DNA of 64,000 nucleotides from a virus (taxonomy: Duplodnaviria; Caudoviricetes), in IMG/VR virus record IMGVR_UViG_3300035698_029580. One strand, 5' to 3'. Below, in pieces: positions 151 through 44,332 of this stretch. The notes under the pieces were generated by a model that worked only from the letters and a program-made list of their open reading frames with translations, was not told the DNA's origin and made no database searches. Position numbers and translations under genes: made by a program. The first letter of the stretch is position 1. The number at the start of each line of letters is the position of its first letter.

Positions 151-459
151 ATGATTATTACTACTGTAAAAGAAGAAAAAATATGCGACCTCTGTAGAAA
201 AGAGGATGAACAAATAAAATCTAAATATCAATGCCAAATATGTAAAAAAGATGTTTGCTCCTATCATACTAAATCTTTTACCTTCTCCAAACCCACTGTA
301 AAAAAACAAATTAATCAAGATTATTCATGGGAAAATCAAAAATATATTATCTCCTGTGTTGATTGCTATAAAATTATAATGGAAAAATTTGATATATTAG
401 AAAAAAAATTAGAACAATTCTATGAAAAAGAATGTCTACCTCTACTTCCAAAGGATTAA
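151..459 (+). CDS. B-box-like Zn-finger/coiled-coil protein, paralog 1
   Basis: CDLC..CQICKKDVCSYH..CVDC followed by a helical tail. Confidence 0.75.
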   Translation: MIITTVKEEKICDLCRKEDEQIKSKYQCQICKKDVCSYHTKSFTFSKPTVKKQINQDYSWENQKYIISCVDCYKIIMEKFDILEKKLEQFYEKECLPLLPKD

Positions 460-559
460 CTAATGACAGTTGTTAATATAGAAGTGAAATAAAAAATGTA
501 CGAAAATAAGATAAATGAATTGTTCAATAAAAAATAATGTTCAAAGGGAGGATTAAATA

Positions 560-1408
560 ATGAAATGTAAAGCCTTTACTCTAGTAGAACTGTTAGTAGT
601 TATTGCTATTATGGCTGTTCTTATGAGTATCCTAATGCCCGCCCTATCACAAGCTAAATATCAAGCCATGAGAACACAATGCCTTGCCAATGTTAAAGCT
701 CAACATATGGCACAATATATGTATGCAACAGATTTTGAAGGAAAATTTGCCCCACATCCAGGTCCGGCTCCCTCATATGTCAGAGCCTATGGTAATAAAA
801 AAAATAATTGTATATATGGACTATTTAAAGATTCAGTACATATGGAACAATCACAAATCCTCTGGTGCCCCATCCTAGCATCAAGATTGTCCTGGTTCAT
901 AGGTACAGGTTGGGATAAAAGCCCTTTAACTTGTTTCCGTGAACTGGAAATGATAAATGAAATAAGCGACTCGTATGCTAATTGGAACTATGAACAAGAT
1001 CCAGATTTTAACCCCTCTCAAGATTATGACTATGAAACAGGACAAGGAAAATATGGATATGTGAGTATGTCATATCTCTGGTTCTCTAATTTTCAAAATG
1101 TTAATAATCCCAGCTGGTTCAAATTTGATTATAATGGAAGTCCAGTTAATACTACTCCCTGGCCTAAAAATCTCAGAGAAGCTAGAGAAGATTCTGCTAT
1201 GATTTCTCATTCTGTTACTCTTAATCCAACTATTATTGCTGATTATTCCCATAAAGGGGCTGGTTTCTCTTATGATATTCTGTCATTTGAAGATTATTCC
1301 GAAACAGCAGATACTCCCGTAGGCTATGGCGATGGACATACCGAAATGATACCTAGACCTGATGTTCTGCCAAGAGTAAATATCAATAATACTATCTATT
1401 TCTATTAA
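560..1408 (+). CDS. Prepilin-type N-terminal cleavage/methylation protein (PVC/Planctomycete DUF1559-like)
   Basis: AFTLVELLVVIAIMAVLMSILMPALSQAK..C..N; C-terminal GYGDGH motif; GGAGG RBS. Confidence 0.9.
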   Translation: MKCKAFTLVELLVVIAIMAVLMSILMPALSQAKYQAMRTQCLANVKAQHMAQYMYATDFEGKFAPHPGPAPSYVRAYGNKKNNCIYGLFKDSVHMEQSQILWCPILASRLSWFIGTGWDKSPLTCFRELEMINEISDSYANWNYEQDPDFNPSQDYDYETGQGKYGYVSMSYLWFSNFQNVNNPSWFKFDYNGSPVNTTPWPKNLREAREDSAMISHSVTLNPTIIADYSHKGAGFSYDILSFEDYSETADTPVGYGDGHTEMIPRPDVLPRVNINNTIYFY

Positions 1409-1533
1409 AATTCTTAATATTTTTTCCCGCGAAAATAATTAAATTCAAAAAATTTCCTATCAAAGTGAAAACTTTTCCACTATAAAGGAAATTAATTATG
1501 ATTAAATCAACTTCCGAATAAGGAGTAATTAAA

Positions 1534-1863
1534 ATGTCAAATACTAAAAAATGTGATTTCTGCGAAAAAGAAGCAATACATAAATGCGATATCTGTAAAA
1601 AAAATGTCTGCGAAAAACATATTAGTGAAAATCCCTATTATACTCATCCTACTCTTATCTGTAATTATTATAGCATACTATATAGACAAGAATCCACTAT
1701 AGCAGTTTGCTCAAAATGCGAAAAAGAAAATAAAGAATTAAAAAATGTACTAAAAGAAGAAAAAAAAATCCACCAAAGATATATTTCTACAATAAATGGT
1801 ATAATGAAAGTAATTAATAAAGAAACTCAACCTCTATGGAAAAAACTACTCAATAAGGAGTAA
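1534..1863 (+). CDS. B-box-like Zn-finger/coiled-coil protein, paralog 2
   Basis: CDFC..CDICKKNVCEKH..CSKC; AGGAG RBS. Confidence 0.8.
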   Translation: MSNTKKCDFCEKEAIHKCDICKKNVCEKHISENPYYTHPTLICNYYSILYRQESTIAVCSKCEKENKELKNVLKEEKKIHQRYISTINGIMKVINKETQPLWKKLLNKE

Positions 1864-1866
1864 TCA

Positions 1867-2244
1867 ATGTCCACCATTAAAGTAAATAAAATAATCTGCG
1901 ATTTCTGCCCTAAAAATAGCAAAACTCAGGCAGACGATAGGTGTTATGTCTGCGGTAATGATATGTGCCATAAACATAAACATTTTGTTAAATATTATTT
2001 TAATATGTATTGCGAACCATATATTATAATACATCAAAATAATGATTCATTTACTATTTGTCCCTCCTGCCACGAAAAAATGATAAAATATGATAATAAA
2101 TTAGACAAAAAAAGAAATAAAGTATTAGAAAAATATAAATCCCAATTATTAGAAATTATATACAAAATGAGTGAAGAAGTACAAAAAGAAAAAAATGAAT
2201 TGTGGGAATTATGTAAAAATCAAAAAAAGGTAAATAAACAATGA
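1867..2244 (+). CDS. B-box-like Zn-finger/coiled-coil protein, paralog 3
   Basis: CDFC..CYVCGNDMCHKH..CPSC. Confidence 0.8.
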   Translation: MSTIKVNKIICDFCPKNSKTQADDRCYVCGNDMCHKHKHFVKYYFNMYCEPYIIIHQNNDSFTICPSCHEKMIKYDNKLDKKRNKVLEKYKSQLLEIIYKMSEEVQKEKNELWELCKNQKKVNKQ

Positions 2245-2603
2245 CAACTATCTATAATCAAAAAAAATTGTGCGATATATGCCTAAATGAGGAAAAAGAA
2301 GTAATAGCAGATTCATCCTGCCATTTCTGTAATAATGATATCTGCGAAAAACATAATAAATCCTTCTCTACTCATAATCCATTCCTAATTAAATTCTATG
2401 AAATATCCTATAAAAGAAAACGTGTCTTCTGTCTATGTCCTAATTGCTTCAACCTCTTCAAAGAAAAAATTAATGATGTTATAATGAAAGAATTTAACCT
2501 TAAACAAAAATATATCTCTAAAATGGGAAATGACTTCAAAGAACTAAAAAATGAAACCGATGAACTATGGGAAAATCTATTAGAAAAACTCGATATTTTA
2601 TAA
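2241..2603 (+). CDS. B-box-like Zn-finger/coiled-coil protein, paralog 4
   Basis: CDIC..CHFCNNDICEKH..CPNC. Confidence 0.8.
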   Translation: MTTIYNQKKLCDICLNEEKEVIADSSCHFCNNDICEKHNKSFSTHNPFLIKFYEISYKRKRVFCLCPNCFNLFKEKINDVIMKEFNLKQKYISKMGNDFKELKNETDELWENLLEKLDIL

Positions 2604-2653
2604 CTTAATTTTTTCCGCGAAAATTAATAAAAATCCCCTAAAAGGATTAACCA

Positions 2654-3040
2654 ATGGCAATTGTTAAAGTAGATCAAACCATCTGCGATATCTGTAACGA
2701 AACAGGAACGAAAATAGGAATGAAAAATGCAGCAAGTGGAATATGCTGCGTCTGTAAAAAAGATATCTGCTATCACCATACATCTAAACATCTCCTCTAC
2801 TCCAATTTTATCCAATGCGAAAATTATAAAGTGATACGTAATATAATGAGATTGCCAATCCTCTGCGAAAATTGCTATGAACTCCTAATTGATAAAAAAT
2901 TGTATAAAATAAAAGAAAAAGAAGAACAAATATATGAAAAATATGAAAAACAACTAAATGAAATACTTAATCAAATCCATCAAGAATCTGAAGAAGTATG
3001 GGAAATACTATTGGAAAATCTTAATAATCCCATAACTTAA
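2654..3040 (+). CDS. B-box-like Zn-finger/coiled-coil protein, paralog 5
   Basis: CDIC..CCVCKKDICYHH..CENC. Confidence 0.8.
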   Translation: MAIVKVDQTICDICNETGTKIGMKNAASGICCVCKKDICYHHTSKHLLYSNFIQCENYKVIRNIMRLPILCENCYELLIDKKLYKIKEKEEQIYEKYEKQLNEILNQIHQESEEVWEILLENLNNPIT

Positions 3041-3167
3041 TATTTTTTTCGCGGAAAATTAAAGAATTCCTTAAAATAATAAATCCCCCTTATTAATAAA
3101 TAAATAAAGATTTTTAATCATTTAATTATATAAGTACATATATAAATAAATAAAGAAAGAATATAAT

Positions 3168-3536
3168 ATGTCAACTAAAATGATAAAACAAACCTTCTGC
3201 GATATCTGTAGTGAATTAGATATAAAACAATTAGCAAATAATAAATGCTCCATCTGTAAAAAAGATGTCTGCGATGATCATCTAAATCATAAAATTATAA
3301 ATCCAGTAAATCATAAAATTATAAATCCAGTAGTAAGAAATAGTATGCTATCTACTCATAATCCAGTTTTGTGCGATATATATAATGTAACCTGTATTAA
3401 TTCAATAAAACTATCCGTCTGCTCCAATTGCTCAAAAAATAGTGCCAATAATATAATCTATGAAGCACAATATAAAGAAATTCAAATACATATACATAAA
3501 AAATATATGACAAAACTAAATGAAATACTTAATTAA
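3168..3536 (+). CDS. B-box-like Zn-finger protein, paralog 6 (probably truncated by a premature TAA; homology continues to 3593)
   Basis: CDIC..CSICKKDVCDDH..CSNC; in-frame LYQEVERVWDNLL after the stop matches the paralog C-termini. Confidence 0.75.
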   Translation: MSTKMIKQTFCDICSELDIKQLANNKCSICKKDVCDDHLNHKIINPVNHKIINPVVRNSMLSTHNPVLCDIYNVTCINSIKLSVCSNCSKNSANNIIYEAQYKEIQIHIHKKYMTKLNEILN

Positions 3537-23583: not shown

Positions 23584-23859
23584 ATGAGTAAGATAATTAG
23601 ATCATTTGAGTGTGGGTGTGTAACACTGGAGGGAGGCAGGAGAATACTTTGCCCGTCTTGTGCTGTCGGTAAAAAAGGTGCTGAAGATTTTATTAGTGAT
23701 CGTCTAAGAGAAGATTATAATACTATTTTAATTGCCGCAAAAAATATTTGTTATCGTATAAAAGTTGCAAAAACTGGCAGACATAGTTTTGATGAATTCT
23801 TAGAAAAAGGTGGCTGCGAAGAATTAAATAGAATTATTGAAGAAGTTGCTAGAAGATGA
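23584..23859 (+). CDS. Zn-ribbon hypothetical protein
   Basis: CGC..CPSC. Confidence 0.6.
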   Translation: MSKIIRSFECGCVTLEGGRRILCPSCAVGKKGAEDFISDRLREDYNTILIAAKNICYRIKVAKTGRHSFDEFLEKGGCEELNRIIEEVARR

Positions 23860-24788
23860 AACAAGAAACAATTCTACAAGAACAAATAGAAAATCCTCAT
23901 TATTTGGTAGTGGCTGGAAGTCGTCTATATGGCACTGTTAGACCAGAATCAGATGATGACAAAAGGGGATTTCTTATTCCTCCATTTGATTATCTACTGG
24001 GTATTAAATCATTTCAGGAGGGTTCTCTTCCAGGTCAAGATTATAAGGTTTTTTCCTTACACCGTTTTCTAAAATTGTGTTTGGGAGGAGATCCTCTTTG
24101 TACAGAAATGTTGTTTGTGTCTGGAGATAAAGTTCTCAAGACTTCTTTTTATGCTCAAAAAATTATTGGAATTAGAGATAAGATTGTTAGTCAGAGAATG
24201 TGCAATAGAGTAATTGGATATAGTTATAGTGAGTGGAGAAAAGCATTTGGTCAAAAATTAGAAATTGATAAGAGAACAAAAACAGAAGATGATGTTATAA
24301 ATGATATTCGTAATCTGTTTGCTCCTGATAAAGAAGATATGGATGAAGTTATTAAAATCCTATTTTCTAAACATCCCAGGAAGATTGTTGCTGCTACCAG
24401 AAAATTAGGTGCTAAGAGAAAAGAGCAGATGGAGAAATATGGATATTGTGTCAGTTCAGCTACTCATTCTATCAGGCTTTTAGGTCAATTATATGAGATA
24501 TTGACAGAGGGGAAGATGACATTTCCTCGTCCTAATGCTGATATTTTGAAGGAAATTAGAACAGGGAAGATGTCTAAAGATGAATTAGAAGATATTTATA
24601 ATGATATTTTGAGACAGGTAGAAGAAGCTAAGTTGAGTACTGACCTAAGGTTAAAGCCAGATGAAAATTTTGTTTGGGACACTTATAGAAATATAATTGT
24701 TGATTTTTTCAAAGATGATGAGTATTGTAAAAAGTTAATGTCTTCTGAATATAGGATTAATAGTGATAGTTCAAGATATTATTTTTAA
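23856..24788 (+). CDS. Pol-beta superfamily nucleotidyltransferase (Nuc-transf/RlaP-like)
   Basis: VAGSRLYG..ESDDDKRG, HSIRLL, L.EIR.G. Confidence 0.85.
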   Translation: MKQETILQEQIENPHYLVVAGSRLYGTVRPESDDDKRGFLIPPFDYLLGIKSFQEGSLPGQDYKVFSLHRFLKLCLGGDPLCTEMLFVSGDKVLKTSFYAQKIIGIRDKIVSQRMCNRVIGYSYSEWRKAFGQKLEIDKRTKTEDDVINDIRNLFAPDKEDMDEVIKILFSKHPRKIVAATRKLGAKRKEQMEKYGYCVSSATHSIRLLGQLYEILTEGKMTFPRPNADILKEIRTGKMSKDELEDIYNDILRQVEEAKLSTDLRLKPDENFVWDTYRNIIVDFFKDDEYCKKLMSSEYRINSDSSRYYF

Positions 24789-24846
24789 TTTTCCAGCATT
24801 ATAAAATAATATCCTATATAATAGGAATTGACAAGTGAATAGAGTT

Positions 24847-25035
24847 GAGATTGTGGCGGAATTGGTAGACGCATCGGTCAGTAGGTAAGAGGGACGTGCC
24901 TCCTATAGGAAACGCAGGGCGAACATCCTCTTTTAATGTGGATACAGAAGTCGTGCTACACCGCTTATGACACTAGTGGAGTGGTGTCATAAGGCCATTA
25001 GCCGAGCCGTGCAGGTTCGAGTCCTGTCAATCTCA
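24847..25035 (+). ncRNA. tRNA-like RNA A; anticodon loop replaced by 122-nt structured insert
   Basis: Acceptor GAGATTG/CAATCTC; D-arm GCGGAATTGGTAGACGC; stem TCGGT/GCCGA; T-arm GCAGG-TTCGAGT-CCTGT. Confidence 0.85.
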
Positions 25036-25084
25036 ACTCTATTTTTTATTTTCCAGCATTATAATTTTATTAGGAATAAGACAA

Positions 25085-25420
25085 ATGGCAACAACAAAAA
25101 AACAATTAAAAGAATTATTTAAACATAATACGGAAAAATCGTATAAGATATATATGAGAAATGACGGAGATGGATGGATTGACTGTTATGGTATTAGTAT
25201 TTTACTTTTTATAGAAAATCTTTTTATTCCAGATGAAATTAAAAATTGTTATAGCAAAGCGATGAATAAAAATTGTATTATTTTGGCAAATTTTACGGGG
25301 AAAAATTCTTTATTGGCTAGAGAAGAAAATTCAAATTGTAGTATTCGTGCCAACAAATCTTTTGAAAAATATAAAAGATGGCTTCATCAAATTTTAGAAA
25401 TAAAAACCTTGAAAGGATGA
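25085..25420 (+). CDS. Hypothetical protein
   Basis: Cassette ORF. Confidence 0.65.
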   Translation: MATTKKQLKELFKHNTEKSYKIYMRNDGDGWIDCYGISILLFIENLFIPDEIKNCYSKAMNKNCIILANFTGKNSLLAREENSNCSIRANKSFEKYKRWLHQILEIKTLKG

Positions 25421-25424
25421 AAAA

Positions 25425-25826
25425 ATGTTTATTTTTGTTATTATTTGCATTGTCATTATGGTCATGAATGTTTTGTTTATGATTTATTTGAACTGGAACA
25501 AAAAACATCAAGAAAAATATAATAAAACAGTTGATAGGTTGATGGAGAACTATAAAACAACCATAGAGCACTATAAAACAGCCATTGAAAAATATAAAGA
25601 ACTATTAAAAATTCGTGAAGAAATTTTTGAAAATAATAAATCTCTTGCGAAAATTAGTAAAGAAATGATTGAAAATTATGAAAAAGTTGTAGAGACATAT
25701 AAAAATGTCTGTAAGTGTGCTTTGGCAGATTTAGAAGGTGTGATGTATTTGATAGAGCCAGATGGAGAAAGGGAACATCCTGCCTGGAAAACTATTGAAG
25801 AGTTGAGAGAAGTTATTAAACTGTAG
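25425..25826 (+). CDS. Membrane-anchored coiled-coil protein
   Basis: N-terminal TM; ExYK heptad repeats. Confidence 0.7.
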   Translation: MFIFVIICIVIMVMNVLFMIYLNWNKKHQEKYNKTVDRLMENYKTTIEHYKTAIEKYKELLKIREEIFENNKSLAKISKEMIENYEKVVETYKNVCKCALADLEGVMYLIEPDGEREHPAWKTIEELREVIKL

Positions 25827-28824: not shown

Positions 28825-29109
28825 ATGAATAATAAATCAAAAACTTTGGAGGAGATGGAAAAAATAGCGGAAGAGTGTGAAATAAAAGACAAGAGAGTGT
28901 CTAATTATTTTCGTTTGCAAGATTTTTCTAGGCCACAGGAAATTCCTGTTTCTCCTCCTAAATTAAAACCAATTAAACCTATGCCCAAGAAAACCCAACC
29001 TTTGAATTCTAAGTGTAATTGTGGTAGTGGTAAAAAATATAAGAAATGTTGTTTTTCTGGAAAAGAGAGATATAATAAAGTGAATAGAATTAAGACTGTG
29101 GCGGAATAG
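28825..29109 (+). CDS. SEC-C motif protein
   Basis: NSKCNCGSGKKYKKCC. Confidence 0.8.
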   Translation: MNNKSKTLEEMEKIAEECEIKDKRVSNYFRLQDFSRPQEIPVSPPKLKPIKPMPKKTQPLNSKCNCGSGKKYKKCCFSGKERYNKVNRIKTVAE

Positions 29110-37339: not shown

Positions 37340-37588
37340 ATGAAAACGTTGGATTATGACACACAGGGAGAACGAGCGGCTTTTAGAGTCACCAAAGATA
37401 TTCCTGTTGGGACATGGGTTCGTACTGCATGGGACTCCCCTGATCTAATGGACGGCATTCTCGTGGAAAATGAAAAAGACAGTGAATCTTACGTCGATGT
37501 CTTTTTTCCTTCTGGACTTCAGAGAATATCCAGAACACAAATTATTGGGACCGGGAATATGGTAGAAGCAAAAAACACAGGACTTTAA
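37340..37588 (+). CDS. Hypothetical protein
   Basis: Cassette ORF; AAGGAG. Confidence 0.7.
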   Translation: MKTLDYDTQGERAAFRVTKDIPVGTWVRTAWDSPDLMDGILVENEKDSESYVDVFFPSGLQRISRTQIIGTGNMVEAKNTGL

Positions 37589-37719
37589 TTTATAGAAAAG
37601 TAATTTTCCTATATGGGGTGGTAAGAGTTGTCAGATTTATCACTTCATTACATTTTCCAGCATTATATGTTTTTATAGTATATAGTGTAAGGAAAACAAA
37701 AAACAGAAAGGAAAAACAA

Positions 37720-37941
37720 ATGATAACAGTAAAACAATGTGTTGAGAATAAACTTAGAGCGTGTAATCCTTGTTCTTATCTGTCAATTAGAGAGGAAGTG
37801 AATTTGCAACAAACAGAATTTGATGATAATCAATTAGTAGATATTGATATATTTATTGAGCGTGCCATCAAAGAACTTATCAATGACAAGATTGCGGATT
37901 GTGTCGTTGGCGATAACGAATTTGTTTTGGATTTGCATTGA
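37720..37941 (+). CDS. Hypothetical protein
   Basis: Start reassigned to the ATG after header and RBS. Confidence 0.65.
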   Translation: MITVKQCVENKLRACNPCSYLSIREEVNLQQTEFDDNQLVDIDIFIERAIKELINDKIADCVVGDNEFVLDLH

Positions 37942-38023
37942 TAATTTTCCAGCATTATATGTTTTTATAGTATATAGTGTAAGGAAAACAAAACAAAAAA
38001 ACAAAAAACAGAAAGGGAAAAAC

Positions 38024-38221
38024 ATGCTAGCAGCAACGTATAAGACAAAGAAAGATTTAAAAGCAAGTATTGGCAAGTCACTAAGGTTCGTCGAGACAAG
38101 TATGTTTGGGGTTGAATATAAAGACACTGGTAAGTTTGCGGTGGTAGGACCGGCTCCTTATGATAGGAAATGGTATGCCGAAGTGACAATGGCAGACGGA
38201 GTTATTGTCAAGGTTAAGTAA
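38024..38221 (+). CDS. Conserved small phage protein
   Basis: YKTKKDLK.SIG..L...ETS.FG.EY..RKWYA.V. Confidence 0.7.
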   Translation: MLAATYKTKKDLKASIGKSLRFVETSMFGVEYKDTGKFAVVGPAPYDRKWYAEVTMADGVIVKVK

Positions 38222-38246
38222 TAAATGACTTTTCTGTTTTGTTTGG

Positions 38247-38285
38247 TAGGACGACGGGTTTACTCCCCCGTCGTCCTATTTTTTT
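38247..38285 (+). terminator. Intrinsic terminator running into header motif
   Basis: TAGGACGACGGG/CCCGTCGTCCTA; paralog at 38947. Confidence 0.8.
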
Positions 38286-38348
38286 CCAGCATTATATATT
38301 TTTATAGTATATAGTGTAAAGAAAACAAAAACAGGAAGGAAAAAACAA

Positions 38349-38921
38349 ATGACAAAAACACAAACTGAAAAAACCACGAAAATCCATCCTATTGCAACAG
38401 TCACTCCTACTCAATTGGTGGGTGAGTTACTGAAAATGGATGGGACTGGGACCAGCTTCGAGGGCATGGATTGCAAAGTTTTAGTCAAAATGAATAAGAC
38501 GGCAAAACGTGATGGAGTAAAATTTGAAAATCCTTATTTTGGTAAGGTTTATAAGTGCTATTCTGTTAGCACAATATCCAATGCCAATTATGAGAGAGCC
38601 GTCAACCGTCAACGTGAGAGAGAGGGCAAAGAAACTGATTTTGAGGCTCTTCCGAGAGTCTGGGGCGAAAGGGTTGGCAAAAGTCCTGTTATTCAACATA
38701 AAGGGCAATTCTACTTTGCCATACATGTTAAGACTCTCACCACAGACGTAACATATGAGGACGTAAACGGCAATGCCGTCGAGAAAGAAAGTATTGTTCA
38801 GTTTCTTCCCAAGAAGTCATCAAGTCGTCAAGGTGTCGAGAATGAGATTATTGTTAGGACGTATAAGATTGAGTCAATTCTCCAAATGAGAATGAAGGGT
38901 GGAACGTATATAGTAAAGTAG
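38349..38921 (+). CDS. Hypothetical protein, paralog of 33031..33615
   Basis: See paralog. Confidence 0.8.
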   Translation: MTKTQTEKTTKIHPIATVTPTQLVGELLKMDGTGTSFEGMDCKVLVKMNKTAKRDGVKFENPYFGKVYKCYSVSTISNANYERAVNRQREREGKETDFEALPRVWGERVGKSPVIQHKGQFYFAIHVKTLTTDVTYEDVNGNAVEKESIVQFLPKKSSSRQGVENEIIVRTYKIESILQMRMKGGTYIVK

Positions 38922-43553: not shown

Positions 43554-44332
43554 TGTCATATATTGGTAGTTGGAAAATAGATGACAATTTAACTTTTTAT
43601 GTTAATACTCATAGAGTAGATACAGGAGAAGCAACTGATGCAGATGCTGTACCTACATATCGTTTTTATGAAGATGAAGCAGCATTAGGGCTTAATGGTA
43701 GTATGGCATTATTAGATGCTGCTAATACGGTTGGATTTTATTCAGAACAGGTAACATTATCAGCAGCAAATGGTTTTGAGAAAGGTAAATGTTATAGTGT
43801 ATACATAACAACTACAGTTGATGGAGTGACAGGTACAATAAACCATAATCTTCAAATAGAAGCAGAAGTGGACTCAAATAGTTTAAATCCAACATCTATA
43901 GTAGCCAGTGTATCTGGTAACGTAGACGGTAATGTAACTGGAACTGTTGCTAGTGTTGTAGGTAACGTAGATGGTAGTGTAGCTTCTGTTGTAGGAGCTG
44001 TGGGTAGTGTAACTGGAGCTGTCGGGAGTGTAACAGGTGCTGTTGGTTCAGTAGCTGGAAATGTAGATGGTAGTGTAGCTTCTGTTGTAGGTGCTGTGGG
44101 AAGTGTAACTGGAGCTGTCGGTTCAGTAGCTGGAAATGTAGACGGTAATGTAACTGGAACTGTTGCTAGTGTTGTAGGTAACGTAGATGGTAGTGTAACA
44201 GGAAGTGTTGGATCATTAGCTGCTCAATCTCAAATAGATATAAGGACTGCTATAGGAATGGCATTAGCCAATTTAGATACTCAGATATCTAATATTCCCG
44301 ATGGAAGCAAATGGTATAACAAAAATGGATAA
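43553..44332 (+). CDS. Probable virion fibre protein with (GSVxGxV) repeats
   Basis: Low-complexity G/S/V repeats over ~100 aa. Confidence 0.6.
   Translation: MSYIGSWKIDDNLTFYVNTHRVDTGEATDADAVPTYRFYEDEAALGLNGSMALLDAANTVGFYSEQVTLSAANGFEKGKCYSVYITTTVDGVTGTINHNLQIEAEVDSNSLNPTSIVASVSGNVDGNVTGTVASVVGNVDGSVASVVGAVGSVTGAVGSVTGAVGSVAGNVDGSVASVVGAVGSVTGAVGSVAGNVDGNVTGTVASVVGNVDGSVTGSVGSLAAQSQIDIRTAIGMALANLDTQISNIPDGSKWYNKNG

Follow-up and report, generated by a model that had tools for sequence, protein, structure and literature searches.

Bacteriophages carry tRNAs, Y RNAs and a few stable RNAs without an explained function, such as rnaC and rnaD of phage T4. The former (species 1) comprises 139 nt and the latter (species 2) 119 nt, and both were fetched and folded for the present comparison. 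YrlA-type Y RNAs are found in phages that carry Ro60 and RNA-repair genes, and some of them are cut by RNase P and receive CCA (PMC4201824). Engineered 'tRNA scaffold' RNAs with the topology described below accumulate stably in E. coli, and in these molecules the tRNA frame confers correct folding and nuclease protection (PMC3753655).

The RNA described here, RNA A, is a stand-alone RNA gene of 206 bases (24838-25043, + strand). It lies in a stretch of 64 kb, the whole of which was analysed and is referred to as the window. The source of the window is an uncultured phage; the sequence is an AT-rich, phage-like contig (31.7% G+C) with densely packed genes. With a probability of about 0.6, RNA A is a free-standing non-coding RNA of the phage that combines a tRNA-Leu frame with sealed ends, a cargo of 122 nt and a function like that of a tRNA scaffold.

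RNA A was identified in four independent metagenome assemblies with no differences within the RNA, and is therefore not an assembly artefact. So far it has been found in one phage lineage only. Blastn and megablast against 50,697 phage records gave no match to RNA A nor to the 20 kb around it. The scan of IMG/VR gave 0 matches to three RNA-specific patterns, and the search of the same collection for an RlaP-based locus found none. The IMG/VR scan with the 16-nt promoter motif returned single chance-like matches only, so that no related phage was recognised there.

Architecture and fold of RNA A

The features of RNA A and of its flanks are collected in Table 1. According to the preliminary description, a perfect 16-bp helix closes the RNA, lengthens the acceptor stem by 9 bp and surrounds a tRNA body with a 122-nt insert and a canonical T loop (TTCGAGT). 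All of this is borne out by the sequence, where every arm of the tRNA can be read. The two 16-nt arms of the helix are 100% complementary and lie 174 nt apart. Perfect inverted repeats of at least 16 nt separated by more than 100 nt occur only twice in the 64 kb, as this pair and as the pair at 29083-29098/29262-29277. Within the 9-bp extension, the terminal A-U pair forms with a probability of 0.54 and the remaining eight pairs with 0.93-1.0.

Table 1. Features of the RNA A locus, with positions in the window.
Feature	Position	Strand	Remarks
Promoter-like region	24789..24822	+	TTTTCCAGCA at 24789-24798 and -10-like TATAAT at 24817-24822; promoter function and start site predicted
Leader 11-mer AAGTGAATAGA	24833..24843	+	Common to all four tRNA-shaped cassettes
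5' strand of the 9-bp acceptor-helix extension, AATAGAGTT	24838..24846	+	Perfect complement of 25035-25043
Acceptor stem, 5' strand GAGATTG	24847..24853	+	7 bp with CAATCTC 25028-25034
U8 G9, D arm GCGG-AATTGGTAGA-CGC (24856-24872) and A26	24854..24873	+	Identical to bacterial tRNA-Leu
Anticodon stem, 5' strand TCGGT	24874..24878	+	5 bp with GCCGA 25001-25005
Cargo domain, 122 nt, in place of the anticodon loop	24879..25000	+	Three hairpins and stem extension
Anticodon stem, 3' strand GCCGA, and 5-nt variable loop GCCGT	25001..25010	+	U48 pairable with A15
T arm GCAGG-TTCGAGT-CCTGT	25011..25027	+	T loop canonical; GGTTCGAGTCC exact match at 25014-25024
Acceptor 3' strand CAATCTC, discriminator A73 (25035) and extension 3' strand	25028..25043	+	Complement of 24838-24853
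T-run into the next promoter motif, TTTTCCAGCATTATAA	25042..25064	+	T-run overlaps the last two helix bases
Orphan ORF, 111 aa	25085..25420	+	Part of the ~0.7-kb insertion, by comparison with related phages, that also brought RNA A

Folding agreed with the cloverleaf. The fold constrained to it has -74.4 kcal/mol against -76.6 kcal/mol for the minimum free energy structure, a cost of 2.2 kcal/mol, and the whole RNA has z = -4.1 with respect to shuffled sequences. The cargo is formed by an extension of the anticodon stem (AGU/AUU and GG/CC), by AAGAGG (24887-24892) paired with CCTCTT (24927-24932), by TGTGG (24937-24941) paired with CTACA (24956-24960), and by a perfect hairpin of 10-12 bp (24964-24993). 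When the anticodon-arm domain was folded alone, the pairing probabilities were 0.65-1.0 for the anticodon stem, ~0.9 for AGU/AUU and ~1.0 for the hairpin at 24964-24993, with lower values for AAGAGG/CCUCUU (~0.6) and UGUGG/CUACA (~0.64). The hairpins first noticed beyond the anticodon stem are thus recovered; the anticodon stem (about 1.0), the AGU/AUU extension and the last hairpin are near-certain, and the other two hairpins stand at about 0.6. No RNA A ortholog with sequence differences was identified by blastn of phage records, by the IMG/VR pattern scans or by the metagenome scan, so that the support for the cargo fold is purely thermodynamic. Screening the window for antisense partners or targets of the cargo gave nothing above chance, and the cargo hairpin has no match in 185,579 genomes.

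The elements of the tRNA L-shape are complete in RNA A, comprising the equivalents of U8, A14, A15-U48, G18G19 and T54-Psi55-C56-R57-A58. T31 and G39 are separated by 122 nt, and there is neither a 7-nt anticodon loop with U33 nor a readable anticodon. The sequence encodes no CCA, and pairing with the leader takes up A73 together with the 8 nt that follow it. The earlier view that this is not a working tRNA is well supported, since an RNA with no anticodon loop reads no codon, and a 3' strand paired up to the T-run leaves no free CCA end in the RNA as transcribed. Default ARAGORN identified no tRNA and no tmRNA; with introns allowed, it called a tRNA body at RNA A, at 31918-32065 and at 32192-32336. 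Rfam gave no match at the gathering threshold in the whole window and chance-level matches only at E up to 10 in 24700-25150.

Paralogous cassettes and their genomic setting

RNA A is one of four paralogous cassettes in the window, the others being B (29083-29277), C (31911-32075) and D (32185-32345). Exact copies of AAGTGAATAGA are found only at 24834, 29079, 31907 and 32181, each directly 5' of a tRNA-shaped cassette. The distance from this 11-mer to the -10-like hexamer differs among the copies, and the 11-mer probably spans the transcription start.

The frame of B is like that of A and comprises a 16-bp closing helix, TG-GCGGAAT...GTAGACGC and an identical T stem (GCAGG/CCTGT). The closing helices of A and B differ at three pairs, with both strands altered in each case (G-C to A-U at two of them, U-A to C-G at one). 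In a metagenomic B ortholog, present in two sibling samples (L002 and L122), the 5' strand is of the A type and the 3' strand of the B type; this places G·U or U·G at exactly the same three pairs, and 100% of cells are paired. In the slid-register control pairing falls to 32-48%, and in the shuffle control the covariation of the three sequences is not significant (143 of 500 reach it). The three compensatory pairs between A and B, along with the G·U intermediates in the relative, indicate that the paired form of the helix matters, and the helix appears to be under selection. The interior of B is ~97-98% identical to that of its ortholog whereas the flanking genes are 71-88% identical (DNA). 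This higher conservation argues for purifying selection on the RNA or for a recent exchange of the cassette.

A comparison of the A interior with the B interior scores 25 against 21.9 +/- 4.1 for shuffles; a hairpin common to both was considered and dropped because this similarity is not significant. A and B have one frame in common and carry different cargo. B lacks G18G19, its D loop being occupied by a hairpin of ~45 nt, and has lost the T loop, which is an 8-nt non-canonical TATAGAAT. Any property common to A and B can therefore do without the tRNA elbow.

C and D are tRNA-shaped, with inserts of 74 nt and 68 nt respectively in the ARAGORN intron model, and have no long closing arms. They are clearly paralogous to one another, compensatory changes being present in the anticodon stem and in the T stem, and are arranged in tandem with a spacer of ~110 nt that contains three hairpins. 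Since D itself lacks a complete promoter, the two may be co-transcribed and in need of processing. A fifth tRNA-like RNA, E, was identified in L002 (3687-3795) behind the leader GTGAATAAA and is absent from the corresponding place in the window. It contains a 10-bp closing helix (GTTTGAGCCT/AGGCTCAAAC) and a canonical T arm (GTGGG-TTCAAAC-CCCAC); its D loop lacks GG, and a proper anticodon loop is missing. A U at -1 and a 7-bp acceptor are shared by all five paralogs read. The metagenome scan with a degenerate 5' end recovered only the B ortholog, in the two sibling samples, and three chance matches. For the 188-aa gene downstream of D, five loci that carry its relatives were read, and none of them has a tRNA-shaped RNA.

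The gene upstream of RNA A (23856-24788) encodes an RlaP nucleotidyltransferase, a member of a family that, in tRNA repair, extends damaged 3' ends of RNA by one or two nucleotides (bioRxiv 10.64898/2025.12.29.696909; PMC7824862). In the closest relatives, L001 and L002, RlaP is 84-87% identical and the next gene lies ~60 nt after it. Synteny with these relatives is broken between 24804 and 25566-25573, where the window has ~0.7 kb extra after RlaP, comprising RNA A, the orphan 111-aa ORF and the start of the next ORF. For the orphan ORF no homologs, no Pfam family and no atlas lead were found, and its AlphaFold pLDDT is 38. The next ORF (133 aa, 25425-25826) is the counterpart of an 86-aa gene in the relatives (L001 2192-2452, L002 1199-1459); its first ~47 codons fall within the inserted segment, so that its true start may lie within the ORF. 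In L002 the B ortholog and RNA E are on the opposite side of a SEC-C-motif gene with respect to B in the window. A functional link between RNA A and RlaP on the grounds of adjacency was rejected, the adjacency not being kept in the relatives. The cassettes are thus shuffled one by one, plausibly through recombination between promoter repeats, and the position of RNA A next to RlaP is incidental. The order of the cassettes is variable among the related phages.

The motif TTTTCCAGCA with an A/T-rich -10-like element is located ahead of nearly every gene, with more than 50 copies in the window. Many cassettes end in a G+C-rich hairpin and a T-run abutting the next TTTTCCAGCA promoter copy, and this junction of hairpin, T-run and promoter was identified at no fewer than, that is at least, eight cassette ends besides RNA A. 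A highly regular grammar, TTTTCCAGCA(T/A)... then ATTAAAATAAAAA and a Shine-Dalgarno sequence, is found window-wide (e.g. 13456-37057). At 4797-4940 copies of the promoter motif on opposite strands form an 18-nt perfect palindromic pair (AATTTTAATGCTGGAAAA / TTTTCCAGCATTAAAATT), which may be a switch point of divergent transcription. A variant, TTTTCCAGCATTATAT(A/G)TTTTTATAGTATA(C/T)AGTGTAAGGAAAAC, is present in four tandem copies preceding small ORFs (37267-38358) and is a second promoter class with a long conserved leader.

Other elements of the window are the following. The intergenic segment at 34020-34160 is promoter-led and without an ORF; its ends are pairable (AAGAGAGG... / ...CCTTCCTCTT) and are followed by a T-run and then by the next promoter. 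This segment may be another non-coding RNA, with no obvious tRNA features. The region 212-3292 contains at least five paralogous genes with a common Cys-rich block (C-x2-C-KK-D-x-C... H), one of which (560-1408) has a pilin-type methylation motif (PF07963) at its N-terminus. In-frame tandem repeats with periods of 21, 75 and 99 nt are located at 43927-44238 within an ORF of 259 aa, the product of which contains a Gly/Val/Ser-rich repeat and is probably a fibre or decoration protein.

Origin of the tRNA body and alternative explanations

The 24-mer GATTGTGGCGGAATTGGTAGACGC of RNA A has 10 exact matches in 185,579 species genomes, and the six loci checked are all tRNA-Leu genes. In these six genes the acceptor is GCGATTG/CAATCGC with A73, from which the acceptor of RNA A differs by one compensatory change (C2-G71 to A2-U71). 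The tRNA part of RNA A, judging from these matches, derives from a tRNA-Leu. The determinants of E. coli-type LeuRS are A73, A15-U48, G18G19, A20a, G18:U55, G19-C56 and U54:A58 (PMC9976931). Every one of those listed is present in RNA A; what is missing for a LeuRS substrate is a free CCA end.

The retention of this set raises one sharp hypothesis open to a simple charging assay. RNase P would cut at U(-1)/G1, a 3' nuclease would trim the RNA to A73, CCA would be added, and LeuRS would charge an RNA of ~189 nt for a non-decoding use, e.g. to sequester LeuRS or to supply a transferase with Leu. The full identity set (A73, A15-U48, G18G19/A20a and the T-loop pairs) agrees with this course of events, as do the U at -1 and the 7-bp acceptor in five of the five paralogs read. 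We consider it unlikely, however: CCA is not encoded, and U(-1) is paired with A73 in a seamless helix, a pairing that disfavours or shifts cleavage by bacterial RNase P. Moreover, the extension itself is maintained by compensatory change, the Leu determinants are lost in paralog B, and in A they could reflect mere recent descent from a tRNA-Leu gene. Slightly less likely still is a more specific proposal, in which RNA A would be trimmed at G24847/A25035, CCA-bearing and leucylated by the host LeuRS, within a modular display of 'tRNA frame plus swappable cargo' where A and B would be two loads. If true, the phage would make an anticodon-less Leu-tRNA that acts outside decoding, as a LeuRS sink or as an amino-acid donor for non-ribosomal transfer. 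Descent from tRNA-Leu could also mean decay, as phage genomes contain many tRNA fragments. RNA A would then be an insertion-disrupted relic, kept only for its terminator ends between two cassettes and with no function as an RNA. The missing anticodon loop fits such a relic, as do the position of the cassette as an insertion relative to the relatives and the failure to find an RNA A ortholog in other lineages (phage records, IMG/VR and metagenome scan). It is difficult to reconcile with a promoter motif of its own and a family-specific leader, with invariant tRNA core positions that are all intact and stems that are perfect, with four paralogs showing compensatory stem changes, with a paralog B more conserved than the neighbouring genes, and with a highly structured insert (z = -4.1 for the whole RNA). 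Decay is accordingly given a low probability, similar to that of charging by LeuRS.

Y RNAs mimic tRNA, and a rearranged Y-RNA-like molecule could tether phage Ro60/TROVE or RNA-repair enzymes (RlaP) to a tRNA-shaped module. The RlaP gene is immediately upstream, and GGCGAA in the cargo (24918-24923) has six of the seven fixed letters of the Ro60 motif GNCGAAN0-1G (PMC4201824). That motif is nevertheless incomplete (GGCGAA-CA, 24918-24925), internal and missing from B, C and D, with none in the closing helix, and a GNCGAA hexamer occurs by chance in about one in ten such inserts. The adjacency of RlaP is not conserved, since in L001 and L002 RlaP is followed by another gene and the B ortholog is elsewhere. 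The Rfam YrlA model (RF02553) gave no match at the gathering threshold or at E up to 10, and the topology is opposite to that of YrlA, RNA A ending in the acceptor helix and not in a Ro-binding stem. No TROVE domain was identified in the ORFs searched around RNA A. A Ro60 partner is thus improbable, and an identity as a YrlA-type Y RNA was ruled out by model, motif and topology. Two further explanations are far less probable. In one of them RNA A is a functional tRNA from which 122 nt are removed, as a group I intron, at a bulge-helix-bulge, or by cleavage and a phage ligase. The insert is in the anticodon loop, the usual site of tRNA introns, the phage encodes RNA-repair enzymes, and ARAGORN proposes a tRNA when introns are allowed; that model, however, requires a distorted anticodon stem and an aberrant variable region, and sets a Met anticodon in a Leu-type body. 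At E up to 10, Rfam matched neither group I introns nor other ribozymes, and an insert of 122 nt is much smaller than known group I introns. There is no bulge-helix-bulge (3-nt bulges, 4-bp helix), the junction helix being interrupted only by a single mismatch and a 1-nt bulge. When 24879-24885 and 24994-25000 are inspected, no excision gives a 7-nt loop with U33 and purine 37, and the extended ends are paired and without CCA. In the other, the 16-bp arms are not an RNA helix but the terminal inverted repeats of a small MITE-like mobile element. Perfect inverted repeats do border a unit of ~200 bp, the positions of the cassettes differ among related phages, and arms that co-vary in two copies are also expected from a shared transposase site. 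Yet the flanks (AAGTG and TTTTA) have no target-site duplication, the inserted segment is ~0.7 kb and is bounded by promoter repeats rather than by the 16-bp arms, and the three arm differences of the L002 ortholog are all G·U-compatible. The interior, besides, is a tRNA cloverleaf with promoter and T-run, and the long arms are missing from C and D. Both explanations are very improbable.

Two other identities were discarded. A retron ncRNA, suggested by the a1/a2-like closing repeat, was set aside, as none of the ORFs searched was recognised as a reverse transcriptase and a tRNA cloverleaf forms the interior. A tmRNA was ruled out by the lack of an ARAGORN call, by G-C instead of G3·U70 at position 3-70 and by the lack of a tag ORF.

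Proposed role and comparison with known systems

The 16-bp helix is followed by TTTTTTATTTT and is in the same place as the classical terminators of the neighbouring cassettes, although its 174-nt interior is beyond the definition of the terminator scanner, which made no call. Since the helix occupies the place of the terminator hairpin before the T-run and promoter, the simplest role of the 9-bp extension would be that of terminator stem and end clamp. It is possible that the extension deliberately blocks RNase P and RNase Z, and, as first proposed, it might attract RNase III. Such blocking would be compatible with the U(-1)-A73 pair in a seamless helix, but is unneeded to explain the helix.

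As a natural scaffold, RNA A would be transcribed from its own copy of the phage promoter, with a start within a few bases of 24833-24838, and transcription would end at the U-run after 25043. The 16-bp helix, formed by the 7-bp acceptor and the 9-bp leader/trailer, would act as terminator stem and would clamp both ends against 5'-end-dependent and 3' exonucleolytic decay. The tRNA frame would fold into a stable L-shaped molecule, resist nucleases and be recognised by tRNA-elbow-binding factors. The variable cargo, which sits on the extended anticodon stem and is different in A and B, would be the part meeting a specific partner. On the features of the sequence, RNA A most likely acts as a stable tRNA look-alike or carrier and not as a decoder.

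The scaffold reading is favoured by a helix that is unique, with that of its paralog, in 64 kb and kept through double changes between A and B; by a D arm and acceptor that match tRNA-Leu exactly or with one compensatory pair, at a cloverleaf cost of only 2.2 kcal/mol; and by the promoter upstream and the T-run and next promoter downstream, a junction like that of the protein-gene cassettes. Against it, an intrinsic terminator helix closing a multi-branched 'loop' of 174 nt is unusual, the three-sequence covariation is not significant, B is without the elbow, and no partner or target was found in the search of the cargo against the window. If RNA A and its paralogs are natural tRNA scaffolds, they would point to a general phage route to stable RNAs or to decoys of tRNA-binding factors, and would provide defined baits for Ro60, RlaP, LeuRS, RNase P and host tRNA-targeting defences.

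With respect to known systems, RNA A appears to be a new variant among phage tRNA mimics, real, selected and non-decoding. It shares with bacterial tRNA-Leu (type II) identical positions 8-26 and D arm, a near-identical acceptor, A73, A15-U48 and a canonical T loop, and differs in having no anticodon loop, a variable region of 5 nt instead of a long one, no CCA and paired ends. tmRNA also contains a tRNA-like acceptor/T-arm module, with a long helix to a large structured domain in place of the anticodon arm; RNA A has no ARAGORN tmRNA call, no G3·U70, no CCA and no tag frame, and its D arm is complete. YrlA-type Y RNAs (RF02553; Chen et al. 2014, PMC4201824) are likewise non-coding RNAs with a tRNA-like D/T/acceptor module. 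In YrlA, however, the molecule ends in the Ro60-binding stem and the acceptor-like stem is capped, the opposite of RNA A, which in addition has no Rfam match, lacks a complete GNCGAAN0-1G towards the 5' end, and has no Ro60 gene recognised within 4 kb among the ORFs searched.

The nearest published phage RNA in kind is T4 rnaC. Like RNA A, rnaC and rnaD are phage-encoded stable RNAs, and rnaC has a canonical T arm (CCGGG-UUCGAAU-CCCGG), paired 5' and 3' ends and long hairpins inside. Its short closing stem contains two U·U mismatches, and there is no evident D arm with GG, whereas RNA A has a 16-bp clamp and a full Leu-type D arm. The T4 RNAs are located inside a tRNA operon whereas RNA A stands alone with its own promoter, and no sequence similarity was seen. 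RNA A and its paralogs combine a complete tRNA frame, sealed ends and interchangeable structured domains at the anticodon position. A comparable frame with an insert is found in the engineered tRNA scaffold (Ponchon and Dardel; PMC3753655), in which the acceptor, D and T arms are kept and a helix-closed structured insert replaces the anticodon stem-loop. The engineered molecules are processed to normal tRNA ends with CCA, whereas RNA A is natural and has a 9-bp leader/trailer extension, a T-run and no free ends; the likeness is best regarded as an analogy of mechanism and not of family.
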